DNA of 59,042 nucleotides, filler included. It is 7 parts of 7 records of this genome, joined end to end, with 100 filler letters (N's around TTAATTAATTAA, not from the genome) between each part and the next. Parts side by side here need not be neighbours in the genome. Positions count along the whole stretch, not along the records: positions 44,149 to 59,042 come from SRR31156797_41825; 6 more parts are not named here. One strand, given 5' to 3'. Below the pieces are notes generated by a model. That model was given only the letters and a program-made list of their open reading frames with translations. It was not told the origin of the DNA and made no database searches. Shown here one piece after another: positions 51,605 to 59,042 of this stretch. Made by a program: the position numbers and the translations under genes. How positions within the stretch are numbered: the first letter of the stretch is position 1; each line of letters starts with the position of its first letter.

Positions 51605-52204
51605 TTATGCCTTTGCCAGTGAAGGAAAGCGTGCGGCAGCCCTTTCAGGGAGACTCTTCACGATACCCCAGACCAGCACAGCAGTTGCGACCTTATCGAT
51701 AACATTAGTAGTGAACACGGTAACTACCACGGAACCAAAAAGATCGCGGCCCAATGCCAGCAGATACGCCATTGCAAAGTCAGCGCCGCTTCCGGTGATA
51801 CCGCCGAACATGTACAGGCGGATAGGCACGGCAACTACAGAATTGAAAACAGTAATGATCAGCCCAGCGAGAATGGCGGTCCACCAGTTCTTGAACATAC
51901 CCATGCGGGCACAAACCCCGGCGATAATACCGATAACCATGGCTACCGGGGCAAAAGCCGCGGCAACCGGGGATGAAATCACACCCCAAATCAGGTTGGT
52001 GATCAGACCGGCAAGTCCACCAGCCCAAGGTCCGGCCAGCACACCCACCATCACTGTGCCGATGGAATCAAGAAAAATAGGCAGCTTAAGCAAAGATACC
52101 AGCTGTCCCACGGCGATATTGATGACGATCGCCACTGCGATCAGAACCCATGTAAATGTTGTAAAATCTTTTTTAATCTGCTCTGTAACACCCATCCCAC
52201 TCAC
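51605..52204 (-). CDS. ECF S component
   Basis: LKLPIFLDSIGT...LAGPWAG; about 6 TMs; in operon with T, A and A'. Confidence 0.85.
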   Translation of the reverse strand: MSGMGVTEQIKKDFTTFTWVLIAVAIVINIAVGQLVSLLKLPIFLDSIGTVMVGVLAGPWAGGLAGLITNLIWGVISSPVAAAFAPVAMVIGIIAGVCARMGMFKNWWTAILAGLIITVFNSVVAVPIRLYMFGGITGSGADFAMAYLLALGRDLFGSVVVTVFTTNVIDKVATAVLVWGIVKSLPERAAARFPSLAKA

Positions 52205-52611
52205 TCCTTGCTGCTGATTTGTGATTTGATTTCCAGTTCCGGATAACCGGTCTGGGGGTCAAAACTTCTCAGAAAGGAGTATTCCGGAAAAACGGCCAAC
52301 ACTATTTCAGCGGTAGTGTAGACCCTGCTTCCTTCCATCATATGCGCACCAATAGTTTTTCCTTCCCCGTCGGATATGGCGATGTGAAAATGGGAACCGT
52401 GCCGGGAAAGCACCCCGGTCAGAGAAACTATCTCAAAATGCCCGTTAAGCTCCGTGGTCTGCCCCTGATTGGCAAAACGCAAAACAGCCTTGGTCAGACT
52501 GCCCACGCAAGTCAGCACACAAGCGGCTTCAATCTCCTGTTCCTGCGCAATACGCTCCAGTTCAAGCAGGATGTCCTGCCCCGGTTTAACCCTGACCGCC
52601 AGAGATTCCAT
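52201..52611 (-). CDS. PPC/DUF296 domain protein
   Basis: R..PGQD, CVGSL..A.LR.A, EIVSLTG, HFHIAISD..G..GAH, TTAE. Confidence 0.9.
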   Translation of the reverse strand: MESLAVRVKPGQDILLELERIAQEQEIEAACVLTCVGSLTKAVLRFANQGQTTELNGHFEIVSLTGVLSRHGSHFHIAISDGEGKTIGAHMMEGSRVYTTAEIVLAVFPEYSFLRSFDPQTGYPELEIKSQISSKE

Positions 52612-52751
52612 GCTATAACTCCATTCCTGATTAAGATTGACCATCCCTTTAAAGGAGTTACAATTACATCACTATTTCAAATACTTCCAATTGGAAAAAG
52701 AAATACAGCAACACAACATGCATTTAATAAAGCTATATCTTCACTAACAAT

Positions 52752-52786
52752 AAAACCCCGCCAGCAATGCTGACGGGGTTCTTTTT
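52752..52786. terminator. Intrinsic (bidirectional) terminator after the APC permease
   Basis: AAAACCCCGCCAGCA-A-TGCTGACGGGGTTCTTTTT. Confidence 0.75.
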
Positions 52787-52823
52787 ATATTAGATATGGC
52801 AGAAAAGCTGCCGGGAATATCAA

Positions 52824-54326
52824 CTATTCAGAAGCAGTCTGGGGCTGACCCTGAGTTGCGCCTTTGTAGAATACCGGAATATCATCACTACCCAAAACAT
52901 TTCTACGCATCTGAGCTTCAGGAAGCTTAGCCCACGCATTTTTGTTGGAGAAGTAGAAGAACACACCCATTGCCACCCATGCAACCATGCACCAGCGTGA
53001 TGCTTCACTGATGTAAGCAGGGGAGCCGGGGATGAGCAGCAGAACGATGCAAAGTACGGAAGCAAGGGTACCCATGCCGCAGCAAAAGAGCTTAAGGGAG
53101 CGCTGGTCAACATCTACAGAACCAAGAATTACCCGGCGCGCAGCAAGGCAGGAAAACAGGTAACCGATACCGGTACCAACAGAACTCATATCAACAATCC
53201 AAACGATAACGGAACGTCCGGCAAAGGGAGTGAGCAGCACGATGGCGATGGTGAACAGGATAGCCTTGTAGGGTGTGCGGTATTTGGGGTGAATTTCACC
53301 GAACCAGGAAGGCATGATGCCGGCACGTGCCATACTCAACAGCAGGCGGGAGGTAGCGATGTAAAAACCGTTAATACCGGTGCAGACCGCGCCCATAACT
53401 GCACAGGCCAGAATTACCGCACCAAGCTTACCGAAAGCCATGGCTGCAACTTCACCAGTTGCCCACGCGGTACCTCCGGCAGCACGCATGGCATCCATAT
53501 TAGCCAGCATTTCAGGAACCGGAATGGCGATACCTACGGCGAGAGTAACCAGAGCATAAAGAACAAATCCGCACAGGATCGCGATGATCATGATGTTACG
53601 GGCATAAGAAGGCTCAAAAGTAAATTCCTCAGCAGCCTGCGGAACAGTATCGAAGCCTGCGAAAAGAAAGGGGGAAATGGCGAAGATGATGAGTACGCAG
53701 GAAAGCATTGAACGGTGCTCAGCGAAAAGCGGAAGCAGGTTACCAACTTCTGCAGTTTCAAGAGAGGCAGAACCGGTAAACAGGGAAACAATACCCAGAG
53801 TCAGCAGGAAGGTCAGCATAACCTGAAACTTACCTGCAAAGCTGTTACCGCGATAGTTCATCCAGCCGAAGAGCACGGTTGCGGCAGTCATCAGAATTAC
53901 CTCGCCAGTGTATACCTGCCATCCGGCAATGGAATACAGAGCCCCGAATTCAAATACTCCCGGGAAGAGAAAACGAAAAATAAGAGCCAGAGCGGCAACA
54001 TCGATGCCGATGATGGCTATGTACCCGAGCACGAGTGCCCACCCGCAGACAAAAGCCGCAGACGGTCCAAAGCCGACATAAGCATATGCAAACGCACCGC
54101 CTGCAACAGGGGCGTACTTAATCATGTAACTGTAGCTGATTGCTACGAAACAAATAAGGAATGCACCGACACCGAAGCCGATCAGGGTACCCAGAATACC
54201 AGCCTGCGGAAGAAACATATCACCGGGGAGAACAAAACACCCCCAACCTACGATTGACCCCAGTGCCAACGCCCAAACCTGTGCGGGCGACATTGATTTT
54301 TCTAATTCAAGTTGTTCTTGTGACAT
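52824..54326 (-). CDS. APC-family amino acid/amine permease
   Basis: GSIVGWG, PVAGG.F.Y, F.GFD..PQAAEE, SRLL.SMAR.G..P..F..IHPKY.TP. Confidence 0.92.
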   Translation of the reverse strand: MSQEQLELEKSMSPAQVWALALGSIVGWGCFVLPGDMFLPQAGILGTLIGFGVGAFLICFVAISYSYMIKYAPVAGGAFAYAYVGFGPSAAFVCGWALVLGYIAIIGIDVAALALIFRFLFPGVFEFGALYSIAGWQVYTGEVILMTAATVLFGWMNYRGNSFAGKFQVMLTFLLTLGIVSLFTGSASLETAEVGNLLPLFAEHRSMLSCVLIIFAISPFLFAGFDTVPQAAEEFTFEPSYARNIMIIAILCGFVLYALVTLAVGIAIPVPEMLANMDAMRAAGGTAWATGEVAAMAFGKLGAVILACAVMGAVCTGINGFYIATSRLLLSMARAGIMPSWFGEIHPKYRTPYKAILFTIAIVLLTPFAGRSVIVWIVDMSSVGTGIGYLFSCLAARRVILGSVDVDQRSLKLFCCGMGTLASVLCIVLLLIPGSPAYISEASRWCMVAWVAMGVFFYFSNKNAWAKLPEAQMRRNVLGSDDIPVFYKGATQGQPQTASE

Positions 54327-54646
54327 CAGATTATCTCTTTGTTTTATGAGTTCACGGCAGACTTCCCCTGAACCTCAAGGTGTCCAAACCCCGGCAGCTG
54401 TTCCTCCTCGAACATTGTTCGGCAACTGCCTGCTGCCGCGTTCCGGTCTTCAAACTAGGATCTCGCCCATCCAATTCATAAATATGAAATGAATTTTTTA
54501 AAGACGACATACTAGACCGGACACACTTCACCATGATTCCGCTTACAGCGACATGGCCTCCTCTCCTTTGCAAAGAGCGAACGATTATCTATACACTTTC
54601 AATCTACCTGGTTCAGCAGCCCTACCAAAAGCCGCTGCTCCATATA

Positions 54647-54663
54647 AGCAAACAGAGTGCCAA
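54647..54663 (-). promoter_or_regulatory. sigma54 (-24/-12) promoter for the APC permease
   Basis: Minus strand TTGGCACTCTGTTTGCT, a match to TGGCAC-N5-TTGC. Confidence 0.8.
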
Positions 54664-54926
54664 TTCGTGAAATTCTTCACCATCGACTTAATATCTAGAA
54701 ATAACTGACTAAAAAATTCTAACCATCACCAATGTCAATATGAGCACTTTAAAACATCTTTCTTTTTCGAAAGTTTTTTTTACTTTCTTGTAAATTTCTT
54801 TACTCCTCACAAACTCCTTCCGAAAGCAGCCGATTACTCACCCGCAACATGCGAATCATTGACTTAAACAATCAAATCAGGAAGATAGCTAAAAATATAC
54901 GATTTTATCATCCAAAATCACAGAAA

Positions 54927-54942
54927 AGGCATCCCCTTTGCA
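54927..54942 (+). promoter_or_regulatory. sigma54 promoter for DUF4125-tauE
   Basis: AGGCATCCCCTTTGCA (GG-N10-GC), 40 nt upstream of the ATG. Confidence 0.7.
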
Positions 54943-54981
54943 ATCTGAAAGATCGTTATTTTTTTCATTAAGGAGGCACCC

Positions 54982-55542
54982 ATGGCCGAAGATAAACGGA
55001 CCCAACTCATTGAGCAGATCATTAAACTGGAACTGGATATGTTCCTTGCAGTTAATAACCGCGGAGGCACCTCACTTTGTCAGGAACGCCCGGAATCTTT
55101 CCGAATAATGCGCAATATGACTCATTCTGTTCTCCCGGACGAATATCTGGAGTCGTATCTCGCCGACCTAGAACAAGCCGCTATCGAAAAGCGCAATCTC
55201 ATGACTGAAAAATACGCACTCATGGAAGGACTCATCCCGGAACAAAACAATTCCCCGGGCATTGCTGAAATTGTGTCCATGGAAAGCGAATGGCGCAAGG
55301 AAGTTGCCACCCAATTCCCGCGTTCAGTGCACCCTGACGGACACCAGTCTTTCTGCATCTATCTCGGCAGCGAGTTGCAGACCTATTCCCAAAAGACCTT
55401 GGATATCTATCTTGAATACGCACAGTCCGTACATAAAAAGCACGGCAACCTCGTGCGCGAAAGATACGAAATCCTCATGCGTATGTTGGGATACGATTCC
55501 CTCGCCCATTGCGAAAAATCAGTAACCAATCCAGCAGAGTAA
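54982..55542 (+). CDS. DUF4125 family protein
   Basis: LE..MF..V.NRGG...CQ..P.SF.IMR, LESY..DL..A....RNLMTEKYA.M, YL..EL.TYS; AAGGAGG RBS. Confidence 0.8.
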   Translation: MAEDKRTQLIEQIIKLELDMFLAVNNRGGTSLCQERPESFRIMRNMTHSVLPDEYLESYLADLEQAAIEKRNLMTEKYALMEGLIPEQNNSPGIAEIVSMESEWRKEVATQFPRSVHPDGHQSFCIYLGSELQTYSQKTLDIYLEYAQSVHKKHGNLVRERYEILMRMLGYDSLAHCEKSVTNPAE

Positions 55543-55548
55543 ATTTCC

Positions 55549-56283
55549 ATGTTTGATTCACCCCACACCCTTGTATTCCTGCTCTGGCTGATCGGCGGAT
55601 TTGTATCCGGGGTCAGCGGTATCGGCGGGGCCATGGTCGCTGTTCCGGCAGCGGCCATGTTCATTCCCATGCAGGAGCTGGTTCCCCTTGCCTGCCTGCT
55701 CAATGTAATCATGGACGGCAGTATCGCGGCCATGCATTTCCGCCATTGCCGATTCTCCGCGCTAAAACCGCTTTTGGTCGGGTCCGTACCCGGAGCCTTT
55801 GCAGGCCTGTACATTTTGACCTTTGTTTCCAGCACCATCCTGCAAGGAGCTGTAGGCGCGCTACTTATTTACTACGTATACTGGCAGCTCACCTTCAAGG
55901 TTGAAAAAACTCACCCGGAATCATGGTCACGGGGCAGTGCCGCCGGATTCGGAGCCAGCCTGCTCGGCACAGCCATATCCTTTGATGGTCCGCCCATTGG
56001 AGCTTACGGCCTCTACGTGGGCTGGCAGCCGCGCGTATTCCTCGGCACCCTCGGCGTATTTTTCGTCATCCGCGCCACCTTCACCTGCATCCTGCAGGCA
56101 GGGGCCGGACTGATCACTCCCACGGTGATCGACTACGCAATCTACGGAGTCCCGGCCACGCTCATCGGGACACTGCTCTCCTTCCCGGTAATTAAGCACA
56201 TCAATCAGGATCTGTTTCGCAAAGTGCTCATGACTGTAATCGCACTGGCCGGAATCGTATGTCTGATCAGATCTTTTTTGTAA
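55549..56283 (+). CDS. TauE/SafE (TSUP) family exporter
   Basis: GFVSGVSGIGG, G..PG...G, GPP; two hydrophobic repeats. Confidence 0.85.
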   Translation: MFDSPHTLVFLLWLIGGFVSGVSGIGGAMVAVPAAAMFIPMQELVPLACLLNVIMDGSIAAMHFRHCRFSALKPLLVGSVPGAFAGLYILTFVSSTILQGAVGALLIYYVYWQLTFKVEKTHPESWSRGSAAGFGASLLGTAISFDGPPIGAYGLYVGWQPRVFLGTLGVFFVIRATFTCILQAGAGLITPTVIDYAIYGVPATLIGTLLSFPVIKHINQDLFRKVLMTVIALAGIVCLIRSFL

Positions 56284-56285
56284 AT

Positions 56286-57785
56286 TTAATAATCGTCTTC
56301 AATTCCAAGCTGCTGAATCTTATAGCGCAAACCGGCTCCAGTTATCTGCATTATCCGGGCGGCCTTGGCGACATTGCCGCCCGTTACTTTAAGCACATTC
56401 CTGATACACTCGGTCTCGTACTGCTGCACACAACTCTTAAGCGGAACCACGCTGTTGCGCTTGATCATATTGTAATCAAAAAAATTCTTACCGAACATGG
56501 AATCATTGACCTGCTGCGGAGCAGCCACTTCCGGACGCGGAGCAGCGGGCATGAAAGCCTTTTCGCAAGCCTCGCGAAAATGACGGGGCAGATTGTCCAC
56601 GCCAATAGAAGTGCGACTGCCCAACAAAGCCAGGCTACCTTCTATAACATGCAATAATTCACGCACGTTACCAGGCCAATCGTAATCAATAAACATCTGC
56701 ACCACATCCGGCTCCACCCCGATCAAACCGGGCGAATTTGTCTGCTCTGAACGGGCAATGAAAGAACGGATAAGCACGGCCAGATCTTCCTTACGTTCCC
56801 GCAGGGGCGGTATGGCCAGACCGACCACAGCCAACCGATAGAAAAGGTCACTACGCAAGAGACCTTCGCTTACGGCATTGAGCGGAGCTTCGTTGAGGAT
56901 GCTGATCACCCGTACATCCACGGGAATTTCTTTTTGTGAACCGAGCCTGCGCACCCGTTTCTCCTGCAACACACGCAAAAGCTTGGCCTGCAAACCCAAA
57001 GGCATGGAGTTAAGTTCATCAAGAAGCAAGGTTCCGCCATTGGCTTCTTCGAATAGACCTGGCTTATCCGGAGCATCGGTATAGGCCCCCTTGGAAGTGC
57101 CGAAAAGGATTGCTTCGAGCAGGTTTTCCGGGATCGCCGCACAGTTTTCGGCAATAAAAGGCTTCTCTCGACGATCACTTTCCATATGGATAGCCTGCGC
57201 AAAAACCTCCTTACCCGTGCCGCTCTCACCCCAAATCATTACATGAGAGGAGGACTTAGCTGCAGTACGGGCCTCGACCAGCACTTCACGCAAAGAGTCA
57301 TCCTCACCCACAAGTGAATCAAATGTGTAATATGAATAGTTTTTATCGCGGGAAGTGGATTTACGGGAACGTTTATTGGAACCGCTCAAAGGAACTGAAC
57401 CGGTCCAAAGAGTGAAAGCAATAACCCCATCCTTATGCCCCTGATCATAGAGCGGAAAGAAGTCGGAAACAGTTCCGGCAAGATAGTTATTGGTAGTCTT
57501 ATAGAGATAGCTCTTGCGCAGGACGGGTTCGCTTCTGCGGAGACATTCAACAGTGGGGATGCAATCCAATTCATGGGGCACATAGAGCTTGGTAATATGC
57601 TGCCCTTCCACGTGTATGCGAGTAAAACCGTCCGCCCTGCGCTGGATGGGGTTCATATATTCGCAGTACCCTTCGGCATCCACCACCGCCACGCCGAGTC
57701 CCAGATCATCCCAGATGGCAATCATCTCTGGAGTCAGCATGCTGCGGCGGCTGACATTAAAAAACTTGTCCTTGCTAAAATACAT
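56286..57785 (-). CDS. RocR-like sigma54 enhancer-binding protein (PAS-AAA+-HTH)
   Basis: PAS-like N-terminus, GESGTGKE, GAYTDA loop, LDELNSM, LNEAP, WPGNVREL, GNVAKAA HTH. Confidence 0.92.
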   Translation of the reverse strand: MYFSKDKFFNVSRRSMLTPEMIAIWDDLGLGVAVVDAEGYCEYMNPIQRRADGFTRIHVEGQHITKLYVPHELDCIPTVECLRRSEPVLRKSYLYKTTNNYLAGTVSDFFPLYDQGHKDGVIAFTLWTGSVPLSGSNKRSRKSTSRDKNYSYYTFDSLVGEDDSLREVLVEARTAAKSSSHVMIWGESGTGKEVFAQAIHMESDRREKPFIAENCAAIPENLLEAILFGTSKGAYTDAPDKPGLFEEANGGTLLLDELNSMPLGLQAKLLRVLQEKRVRRLGSQKEIPVDVRVISILNEAPLNAVSEGLLRSDLFYRLAVVGLAIPPLRERKEDLAVLIRSFIARSEQTNSPGLIGVEPDVVQMFIDYDWPGNVRELLHVIEGSLALLGSRTSIGVDNLPRHFREACEKAFMPAAPRPEVAAPQQVNDSMFGKNFFDYNMIKRNSVVPLKSCVQQYETECIRNVLKVTGGNVAKAARIMQITGAGLRYKIQQLGIEDDY

Positions 57786-58019
57786 TTTTCACAACCTCTC
57801 TCTTTCCCCGGAACGGCCCGAAACAAACTTGGTCCTCCGGCTGCTGATTGGGTCGTTAAGTTAAAAAATATTTTTTAGCAAACCAAAATTTTCTTCTAAA
57901 AAGAAAGATTTCTTTCTTTTTAGCTTCCAACCGCCTCAGTATAAAACCTCCTGCTTGTGCGTATTTAAACACTATTATTTCAGCCAATTAACTATTATTT
58001 TGACCACAGAACGCATCTC

Positions 58020-58035
58020 TGGCACGGCCCGTGCT
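58020..58035 (+). promoter_or_regulatory. sigma54 promoter for the glycyl radical enzyme
   Basis: TGGCACGGCCCGTGCT (GG-N10-GC), divergent from the activator gene. Confidence 0.75.
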
Positions 58036-58118
58036 AGTGACGAAATTAACAAGCGAACGAATAACACTTTCAATCTACCTAAAAGACCAAAACAATAGCA
58101 CAATCACAGGAGATGGAA

Positions 58119-59042
58119 ATGAATACTACTCTGTCTGCAAAAGAAGAGACCCAGACCGCCCAAGGATACGGCATCAACTGGGATACCGCTGAAGAGCGCG
58201 CCAAGGAACTCAAAGATTACCTCATGAACGCTCCTCAGGTCATGGACCCCGAGCGTTTGAAGTTCCTGAATGAAGTATATGAAAAGCATCAGGGTGAACC
58301 TGTAGTATATATCCGCGCCAAAGTTCTCGAGCGCGTACTGACCCAGAAAAAAATATTTCTCGACGGCAACCCCATTGTAGGTACCCTTACAGGTGTCCGC
58401 GCAGGTGTTTACGCATACCCCGAATGGAACGTCTCCTGGATTAAAGAAGAAATGCAGATGGCCAAAATGGCCTCCCTCGGTGAGATGAAAATTCCTGCCG
58501 AAACTCAGGAACTGCTCGAAAAGACCTACAAGCTCTGGAAAGGCCGCACCTGTATTGACCAGAACAACAAGATGTACAAGGAAAAGTACGGTGAAAGCGC
58601 CAAGAAGTACGCCAAAGCCGGCATGTACTACGAAAACGTTTCCGTTGCTTCCGGTTCCGGCATTGCCGACTACGGCATGGTGCTGAACAAAGGTATTCGC
58701 CACCTTATCAATGATGTGCGCACACGCCTCACCGAGACCCAGAACACCCTTGCAAACAGAGATAAAATAGATCTCTACCGCTCCATGCTGATCACCTTTG
58801 AGGCAGTAATCAAACACTCCCACCGCTACGCCGATCTCGCAGAGCAGACCGCAGCGGAAGAGTCCGATCCCAAAGTGAAAGCAGAGCTGCTCGAAATCGC
58901 AGAAATCTGCCGCCGCGTCCCCGAACACCCGGCCCGCAACTTCCGCGAAGCTATCCAGTCCTTCTGGTTCACCCATCTTTGTGTTGCAACCGAGCAGATG
59001 GCTTGCGCTGTCTCCCCCGGTCGTTACGGTCAGTACATGTAC
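58119..59042 (+). CDS. Glycyl radical enzyme (PFL-like family), N-terminal 308 aa, runs off the window
   Basis: Hand translation: MNTTLSAKEE...DPERL...GEPVVYIRAKVL...PIVG...YPEW...DYGMVLNKG...RYADLA...ELLEIAEICRRVPEHPARNFREAIQSFWF...SPGRYGQYMY; AGGAG RBS. Missing from the ORF track because it has no stop in the window. Confidence 0.9.
   Translation, partial: MNTTLSAKEETQTAQGYGINWDTAEERAKELKDYLMNAPQVMDPERLKFLNEVYEKHQGEPVVYIRAKVLERVLTQKKIFLDGNPIVGTLTGVRAGVYAYPEWNVSWIKEEMQMAKMASLGEMKIPAETQELLEKTYKLWKGRTCIDQNNKMYKEKYGESAKKYAKAGMYYENVSVASGSGIADYGMVLNKGIRHLINDVRTRLTETQNTLANRDKIDLYRSMLITFEAVIKHSHRYADLAEQTAAEESDPKVKAELLEIAEICRRVPEHPARNFREAIQSFWFTHLCVATEQMACAVSPGRYGQYMY

Follow-up and report, generated by a model that had tools for sequence, protein, structure and literature searches.

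Direct regulation of one bacterial mRNA by another is rare, and the 2020 Listeria paper counts, in the available part of its text, one earlier example (PMC8722363). In Listeria monocytogenes the 3' untranslated region (UTR) of hly pairs with the 5' UTR of prsA2, a contact that protects from 5'-to-3' decay and couples the expression levels of the two genes (Ignatov et al. 2020, PMC8722363). In Streptococcus mutans the 5' UTR of irvA forms a trans duplex with the gbpC mRNA that blocks RNase J (Liu et al. 2015, as cited in PMC8722363). A comparable contact is proposed here for a sigma54-controlled gene cluster of sulfate reducers, which lies near the end of a 59,042-nucleotide stretch of DNA (the window, to which all coordinates refer) on the part derived from record SRR31156797_41825. 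Two of the operons in this cluster, one beginning with an amino acid permease gene and the other with a glycyl radical enzyme (GRE) gene, have predicted 5' leaders that are perfectly complementary to each other over 9 + 17 nucleotides (nt). Judging from the predicted transcripts, the two mRNA leaders pair independently of Hfq with a probability of roughly 0.6.

The proposed contact resembles hly–prsA2, as far as the available part of that report describes it, in being a direct pairing of two full-length mRNAs of functionally linked genes with an interaction site that is conserved among related species; Listeria also has RNase J (PMC8722363). RNase J and RNase III are each encoded in three out of three relative genomes (over cut-off), and the Hfq family is found in none of the same three. 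The proposed contact departs from hly–prsA2 in that both partners would be 5' leaders under one sigma54 activator and in one gene cluster, and in that the complementary segments are direct repeats, set 3.5 kb from each other, each following one of two divergent promoters. The irvA–gbpC pair, so far as it is described there, differs too, since the irvA target site is in a coding region, its genes do not adjoin within a single catabolic cluster and leader does not pair with leader. Both earlier cases come from Firmicutes and were found experimentally, whereas the present one concerns sigma54 promoters and an anaerobic radical-enzyme pathway, and was recognised from sequence comparison alone.

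The window carries two direct repeats on the + strand, AGCGAACGA-N8-ACACTTTCAATCTACCT at 54576-54609 and AGCGAACGA-N3-ACACTTTCAATCTACCT at 58052-58080, in which block 1 (AGCGAACGA) occupies 54576-54584 and 58052-58060 and block 2 (ACACTTTCAATCTACCT) 54593-54609 and 58064-58080. The copies are about 3.5 kb apart, and each lies downstream of a sigma54 promoter, the two promoters firing in opposite directions. That of the permease operon (54647-54662, minus strand; TGGCACtctgtTTGCT) reads TGGCAC-N5-TTGC at 54648-54662 with no mismatches, and that of the GRE operon (58020-58035, plus strand; TGGCACggcccGTGCT) has one mismatch. Taken 12 nt past the -12 C, the predicted starts fall at 54636 (minus) and 58046 (plus). 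From the end of the GRE-side motif to the AGGAG at 58108-58112 there are 27 nt. A first-pass annotation of this DNA had given the same repeat positions, sequences, orientation and spacers, the same two starts, and an antisense of the GRE 5' UTR that ends about 27 nt before the ribosome-binding site, all of which were reproduced exactly; its placing of oppositely directed sigma54 promoters just upstream of each copy is borne out by pattern search and conservation.

The repeat is a rare word in this DNA. With up to three mismatches the 17-mer matches the 59-kb window twice, namely at the two leader copies, compared with a mean of 0.12 matches in 100 shuffled windows, one of which had at least two. 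A repeat search of the window recovers both blocks, as families D4 and D17. The 17-mer (up to one mismatch) is confined to the same two places in two complete relative genomes, and when 401 family genomes were scanned with up to two mismatches, paired same-strand copies 3.5-3.7 kb apart appeared in five; two further family genomes have a single in-locus match, the second copy carrying a 1-nt indel.

The GRE leader (58046-58112, plus strand) is about 67 nt long, A/C-rich and predicted to be unstructured, with a minimum free energy of -3.0 kcal/mol and of 0.0 for its first 40 nt. Block 1 (AGCGAACGA) would stand at +7 to +15 of the mRNA, where AACAAGCGAACGA is retained in nearly all lineages, and block 2 (ACACUUUCAAUCUACCU, 58064-58080), delimited by the repeat and mismatch search, at +19 to +35. 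On the minus strand the permease leader would carry anti-block 2, AGGUAGAUUGAAAGUGU (54593-54609), at about +28 to +44, which complements GRE block 2 in the predicted duplex, followed by anti-block 1, UCGUUCGCU (54576-54584), at about +53 to +61 with the core GUUCGC. When the two window leaders are co-folded, the net gain is about -30 kcal/mol, blocks 1 and 2 both being paired around a 3 x 8 internal loop, and duplex energies across 19 genomes range from -31 to -47 kcal/mol. The duplex would start 6 nt from the GRE 5' end and stop 27 nt before the ribosome-binding site. An optional third block, UUUUGGU in the loop of the permease 5' hairpin (54624-54630, minus strand), matches ACCAAAA at 58086-58092; RNAduplex pairs it in the window and in the relatives L105, L106, L107 and L109, but not in L001 and L002.

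The weight of the argument lies in distant relatives of the cluster. These were found through DUF4125, a domain encoded between the two operons that was detected in 111 of the 401 family genomes and belongs to the least conserved protein of the cluster. Fourteen regions were taken, and 11 of them proved syntenic; L140 and L149 were dropped as non-syntenic, and L153 is the left flank of genome G001. The layout of permease (minus), DUF4125 and a TauE/SafE-type exporter (plus), sigma54 enhancer-binding protein (minus) and GRE (plus) is shared by 19 genomes and six metagenome loci. Regulators in the 11 distant loci are 67-74% identical and all three sigma54 promoters of the cluster are in place. 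The 17-mer is gone from these loci, and each genome has its own same-strand shared words at the equivalent leader positions: CTTAATCC..TTCAGCAAC in L141, TCCTTTTTCAGCA in L142, TATTAATCCGA in L143, ACCTTTCAATC in L144, TTTCAA..CTTCAGG..AAAA in L147 and L151, GCATTCTC..GCCGACAGCAA in L148, ACTTCA.AAAAAG in L150, TCTTCTGGG in L152 and, weakly, CACCCT + CTTCAG in L145 and L146. Throughout about ten lineages both copies keep fixed distances from the predicted starts, and in the 19 genomes and six metagenome loci they stand in predicted 5' leaders at set distances from the conserved sigma54 promoters.

For nine distant lineages the GRE segment after block 1 was compared with the permease-side segment after block 1 by Smith-Waterman alignment. 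The within-genome scores (25, 26, 22, 23, 12, 30, 26, 21 and 21) sum to 206, and over all 362,880 possible pairings, which have a mean of 124.1 and a standard deviation (sd) of 13.4, that sum is reached by the identity permutation alone; the opposite-strand control scored 4-14 per genome. Duplex energies tell the same story. RNAduplex of anti-block 2 with the GRE segment in ten lineages gave a within-genome sum of -212 kcal/mol, against a permuted mean of -133.8 (sd 12.9), and not one of 200,000 permutations was as low as the true pairing. When each permease leader was dinucleotide-shuffled 200 times, the real duplex was reached by no shuffle in 18 of 19 genomes and by one in L152. These tests used segments, the full-length matrix (whole GRE leader against 110 nt of permease leader) being too noisy. 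A scan of metagenomes with a regulator alignment yielded 39 loci, seven of which (L154-L160) have the same gene order. Duplex tests covered L154-L157 and L159, with L160 omitted since L159 has nearly the same leaders, and in each of the five loci none of 200 shuffles reached the real duplex. L155, whose regulator is 79% identical, represents an intermediate lineage with its own variant, CACTTTCAATCACT, in both copies.

The first-pass annotation had proposed trans pairing of the two leaders as RNA and pointed to covariation of the copies in related genomes as a check. The copies do evolve in concert, as the two permutation tests indicate, and they keep their place in the predicted leaders in every lineage, so the proposal is strengthened. 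Computationally, the complementarity of the leaders is shown to have been kept by selection while the sequence itself drifted. As would be expected of a trans-acting mRNA leader, it exceeds chance and is upheld through sequence change, the latter without an excess of changes compatible with G-U pairs.

Closer relatives add less. Relatives with regulators 88-93% identical belong to Maridesulfovibrio sp., and in the eight close genomes the GRE leader is near-invariant from promoter to start codon, with the DNA further upstream diverged; both copies of the repeat are far better conserved than the adjoining intergenic DNA. The spacers between the blocks vary while the blocks stay, on the GRE side (ATA, ACA, TTT, ATC, TTA) as well as on the permease side (TTATCTAT, TTATCTTT, TTACTAAA, TATCTGT, ACATTCAT). 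A C to A change at position 2 of both copies in L108 is the single clear co-change among these genomes, and some other block changes still permit G-U pairs. Overall the changes appear too few and too mixed, and the comparison too shallow, to decide for or against RNA pairing.

On this evidence the leader complementarity is probably a selected RNA–RNA contact. Slightly less firmly, it is proposed that the permease mRNA acts as an Hfq-independent riboregulator of the GRE mRNA, and possibly the reverse, that the interface has co-evolved across a clade of Desulfovibrionaceae and that a 5' hairpin substitutes where the partner is absent. Several observations weigh against such a contact. Some changes in close genomes are uncompensated, including a mid-helix U-U in L105 and 1-nt indels on the permease side in L108 and L109. 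Other constraints also appear to act on the GRE leader, since the whole of it, beyond the blocks, is invariant in close genomes. The block 2 complementarity of L145 and L146 is weak (score 12). Mismatches between the copies comprise 16 G-U-compatible transitions and 19 other transitions (binomial p 0.74), and for want of an excess of the former there is no strand-specific mark by which RNA pairing could be told from mere likeness of the DNA. The start sites of both leaders are predictions.

Pairing also seems dispensable, because two related lineages have the same enzyme and regulator and lack it. One is L158 (regulator 64% identical), where the GRE leader is long and GC-rich, the permease promoter uncertain and the repeat absent. 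The other is a group of rearranged metagenome contigs (L161-L175, L183 and L184; regulators 61-62% identical) in which the permease gene shares the strand of the GRE gene and precedes TauE, and which have no DUF4125. In the five of these loci that were read (L162, L166, L167, L171 and L184) a perfect sigma54 promoter of its own serves the permease gene, GUUCGCC still occupies a hairpin loop of the permease leader, and the GRE leader is without GCGAAC and carries a GC-rich hairpin at its 5' end. No complementarity beyond that of shuffled leaders was found in L158 and the rearranged group, the real value being attained by 135, 130 and 169 of 200 shuffles. Over its first 40 nt the GRE leader folds with 0 to -4.3 kcal/mol in ten paired lineages versus -11 and -19 kcal/mol in two rearranged loci, which have a 5' hairpin of their own. 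That a built-in 5' hairpin replaces the RNA partner is suggestive and no more, the two loci belonging to one lineage.

Under the pairing proposal the following course of events is envisaged. The sigma54 activator of the locus would, judging from the promoters, fire all three of them. The permease mRNA would start with a protective hairpin and continue with a 30-45 nt stretch reverse-complementary to the opening 35-45 nt of the GRE mRNA, nucleation probably occurring at the conserved GCGAAC/GUUCGC and pairing probably proceeding without Hfq. With 6 nt between it and the GRE 5' end and 27 nt between it and the ribosome-binding site downstream, the duplex would most likely act on the fate of the RNA and not on access by ribosomes. 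Tentatively, and at somewhat worse than even odds, the GRE 5' end would be shielded from 5'-end-dependent decay, and good production of the enzyme would hinge on transcription of the permease operon; this presumed sign of the effect is favoured because the hly–prsA2 and irvA–gbpC duplexes at or near the 5' end block RNase J. The main alternative effect, co-cleavage by RNase III through which the two operons would be held in a set ratio, is considered unlikely, and other outcomes share the small remainder. Reciprocal refolding of the permease leader is conceivable, and block 1 might form a cis helix with the GYGAAC about 25 nt upstream of the permease start, which could compete with trans pairing.

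The permease leader itself (54327-54636, minus strand; about 310 nt in the window and 228-313 nt across lineages) is predicted to be a structured RNA. RNAalifold of eight minus-strand leaders gave 73 pairs, seven of them with compensatory changes, and many of the pairs are G-U, which on the opposite strand would be C-A. The first helix is a 5'-terminal hairpin, AGCGGCU/GGCUGCU (54615-54636), that starts exactly at the predicted +1 and occupies alignment columns 11-17 with 26-32, where the pair types include AU:5 GC:2 GU:1 and GU:3 GC:3 AU:2. It is on account of these covarying G-U helices, the first beginning at the predicted +1, that the permease-side region is read as a minus-strand RNA. The anti-motif is located between the 5' hairpin and the next helices, and further helices flank a variable insert, the window having about 60 extra nt at 54459-54520. 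RNAalifold of 12 distant permease leaders returned no structure because their middle part does not align. A search of 52000-59042 against Rfam 15 (E<=1) gave no match in either leader and two weak matches at 52738-52813, far below gathering scores. The permease leader may by itself be a cis-regulatory RNA of a kind not yet described.

Plasmid copy-number control and type I toxin-antitoxin systems offer examples of kissing-loop antisense RNAs, whose recognition motifs are presented in loops. The core of anti-block 1 recalls this arrangement. It reads GUUCGC in 11 of 12 aligned lineages and GUUCAC in L145, and in local folds outside the group of the window it lies fully in a loop in 7 of 11 lineages, mostly so in three and not in one, in hairpins that covary between lineages (for example CAGAGG/CCUCUG and GCGGAGA/UCUCCGC). 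The likeness extends to a single-stranded target and to longer flanking complementarity. The present partners are, unlike kissing-loop antisense RNAs, both leaders of long mRNAs and do not come from opposite strands of the same DNA, and in the group of the window (six genomes) the recognition sequence is not in a loop.

Also within the permease leader, a purine tract (AAGGAGAGGAGG) is followed by AUG at 54545-54573 (minus strand). The resulting mini-ORF has three codons in the window, L001 and L105 and is longer in L002 and L106, and its AUG sits inside a conserved hairpin stem (GCCAUG...CAUGGC).

The best surviving competitor, improbable as it is, is a DNA operator: a locus-specific protein, such as a roadblock or repressor, would bind the repeat at both sites and its specificity would have co-evolved with them. 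Two identical sites adjoining co-regulated promoters suit this idea, as do the absence of a G-U-compatible excess and the GCGAAC of block 1, which is near-invariant at both sites in almost all lineages as for a protein contact. The version put forward in the first-pass annotation, an asymmetric operator used in both orientations, nevertheless fits the comparisons poorly. The motif is without dyad or direct-repeat symmetry, and within a single genome one copy holds its blocks 5 bp further apart than the other does (N3 vs N8), the difference being another one in other lineages, where gaps of 2 nt and 1 nt occur; such unequal spacers suit internal loops of an RNA duplex better than a single protein footprint. 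Block 2, moreover, changes wholesale between lineages, while the helix-turn-helix (HTH) of the regulator (TGGNVAKAARIxxITGAGLRYK) is near-invariant in 12 loci, and neither the fixed symmetry and spacing of a transcription-factor operator nor a sequence that tracks the DNA-reading residues of a factor is found. A likelier site for the regulator is a perfect AT-rich 13-bp palindrome, CTAAAAAGAAAGA-tt-TCTTTCTTTTTAG, at 57896-57923, about 100 bp upstream of the GRE promoter.

The protein in question could also be DUF4125, the fastest-evolving protein of the cluster (57-70% identity vs 67-74% for the regulator); the rearranged metagenome group has neither this protein nor the repeat. L158 has DUF4125 without the repeat, however, and the predicted structure, all-helical and confident (pLDDT 90.9), matches no DNA-binding fold, although this is weak evidence. 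The best structural matches to the model were a Foldseek hit at E 0.29 and, in VIA-align, a designed helical protein aligned over 61 residues at Z 7.1. The idea that DUF4125 might conceal a nucleic-acid binder was set aside, as there was no usable structural match despite the confident model.

Somewhat less probable still is that the repeat has no function and is a duplication remnant, its copies being kept alike by occasional gene conversion. Conversion between direct repeats only 3.5 kb apart would yield concerted evolution, and it would leave no G-U signature, which is what is seen. The identity is, however, confined to two or three short blocks (6-17 nt) split by unlike and unequal spacers where a contiguous tract would be expected, and the flanks are unrelated and offer little homology to initiate recombination. 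The copies also surpass the adjoining intergenic DNA in conservation, and their positions relative to the starts are fixed in about ten lineages. Recombination between the direct repeats would, furthermore, remove the regulator and both promoters.

About as improbable is a role in cis alone, in which the anti-motif would fold the permease leader, for instance by pairing with its own ribosome-binding region, and the likeness to the GRE leader would be incidental. In the close group RNAalifold does pair the anti-motif with the permease translation-initiation region (6+3+3+6 bp). One partner could be GUGAAC at 54350-54355 (minus strand), a block-1-like sense copy that precedes the permease start codon by about 25 nt and that the alignment pairs through columns 66-71 with 294-299 (GU:6, GC:2 at one pair), and a GAAC-like word near the start codon (GYGAAC) is retained in most lineages. 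The rearranged group, too, keeps GUUCGCC in the permease-leader loop though its GRE leader is without GCGAAC. These pairs are all invariant, however, and hence show no covariation. Anti-block 2 against its own initiation region sums to -60.3 in ten lineages, with a permuted mean of -66.6 and 171,266 of 200,000 permutations as extreme, and the GRE segment is not like the permease initiation region either (188,740 of 200,000). Block 2 co-evolves with the GRE leader instead, and a cis anti-ribosome-binding-site role for it was rejected for want of any within-genome signal; a cis role of block 1 could possibly coexist with trans pairing.

Very improbable is a small + strand RNA that would include the permease-side copy and act as mimic or sponge of the GRE leader: a hairpin after the motif and a CCUCCUCUCC tract before it exist on that strand, but the idea was rejected on the helices, which contain many G-U pairs possible on the minus strand only and begin with a hairpin at the predicted minus-strand +1, and the sole upstream sigma54-like word has a GG-to-GC spacing 3 nt too long, while 54200-58200 contains no sigma70-like promoter (0 found vs 4.4, sd 2.0, in shuffles) and the leader no terminator-like site. 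The short leader-derived small RNA that had been suggested at the outset likewise finds no support, as all four terminator-like sites in 54200-58200 lie outside the permease leader; with Hfq absent from the three relative genomes as well, the marks of an Hfq-dependent small RNA are not seen. A recombination or att-site reading was discarded because the 3.5-kb segment contains no recombinase and its deletion would remove both promoters and the regulator.

The co-evolution signal for an mRNA–mRNA contact is clean and statistically strong. If the pairing proposal is right, a leader-to-leader duplex would form an AND gate between uptake and catabolism, and co-regulated operons would be cross-wired post-transcriptionally without a dedicated small RNA. 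Further cases might then be sought by a comparative screen for repeats, direct or inverted, that follow promoters belonging to the same regulon, and the idea that a partner RNA stands in for a protective 5' hairpin would become directly testable. Should the proposal be wrong, a conserved repeat evolving in concert still needs explaining.

The genes of the cluster are as follows, by Pfam. The permease is a 500 aa APC-family amino acid permease (52824-54326, minus strand; AA_permease 5e-27) and is the first gene of its operon, which further leftwards contains a PCC-domain protein, an ECF transporter (S, T and two A components), a YbaK-like protein and an amidohydrolase. DUF4125 (54982-55542) and the TauE/SafE-type exporter (55549-56283) are on the plus strand. 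The sigma54 enhancer-binding protein (56286-57785, minus strand), with an AAA+ domain and HTH_8, lies between the two repeat copies, and the GRE gene (58113-59042, plus strand; pyruvate formate-lyase (PFL)-like, 4e-59) is cut by the window end. Its full orthologue in L001 (3213-5672, 819 aa) is below every NCBIfam equivalog cut-off. The best NCBIfam match is to the general PFL2/glycerol-dehydratase subfamily (514 bits vs a 678-bit cut-off), and the indoleacetate decarboxylase, HypD and HpsG families reach only about half of their cut-offs. Genes for an activase and a C_GCAxxG_C_C protein are downstream of the GRE gene in L001.

The third sigma54-type promoter (54927-54941, plus strand; aGGCATcccctTTGC) precedes DUF4125-TauE, reads aGGCAT-N5-TTGC and is conserved in all syntenic loci; the short leader behind it has no copy of the motif. 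By number alone the three -24/-12 patterns in the window are not above chance (2.0 expected), and it is their conservation throughout the related loci that leads to their acceptance as promoters. All three positions show this conservation together with the GG -24/GC -12 spacing, and an activator gene is nearby. An equivalent of the permease promoter occupies the same place in seven close relatives, in the 11 distant loci and in the metagenome loci L154-L157, L159 and L160, and L158 has a TGGTAC variant only. A promoter of the regulator gene itself was not identified, since 54200-58200 has no sigma70-like one.

GRE-linked sigma54 regulons have been described in Desulfovibrionales, with a predicted upstream site, AT-rich and palindromic, for one such regulator in D. 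vulgaris (Kazakov et al. 2015, PMC4641369). As in the available part of that account, an enhancer-binding protein gene stands beside a PFL-like operon with a conserved sigma54 promoter and an AT-rich palindrome, and transporter and amidohydrolase genes share the regulon (PMC4641369). The enzyme and regulator here are different orthologues, and the same part of that text describes no repeat downstream of the promoters, while a term search of the paper turns up neither 'antisense' nor 'sRNA' (PMC4641369). Literature searches for sigma-54 with glycyl radical enzyme and Desulfovibrio, and for DUF4125 with glycyl radical, produced no description of this repeat, and the titles listed for the latter included nothing on regulation. 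The palindrome at 57896-57923 is the probable binding site for the enhancer-binding protein. A word similar to its half-site TCTTTCTTTTTT, TCTTTCTTTTT, occurs at 54757-54767, about 95 bp upstream of the permease promoter; it is T-rich and the match alone is weak.

At the GRE gene, AGGAG (58108-58112) directly abuts the first ATG (58113), and a second ATG follows 6 nt on at 58119; because the Shine-Dalgarno sequence adjoins the first, the second is the likelier start. A second DUF4125 paralogue, 68% identical, is present in G001 (L153, 6560-7114) about 6 kb to the left of the permease gene, and the matching place in the window is taken by the YbaK-like gene on the other strand.

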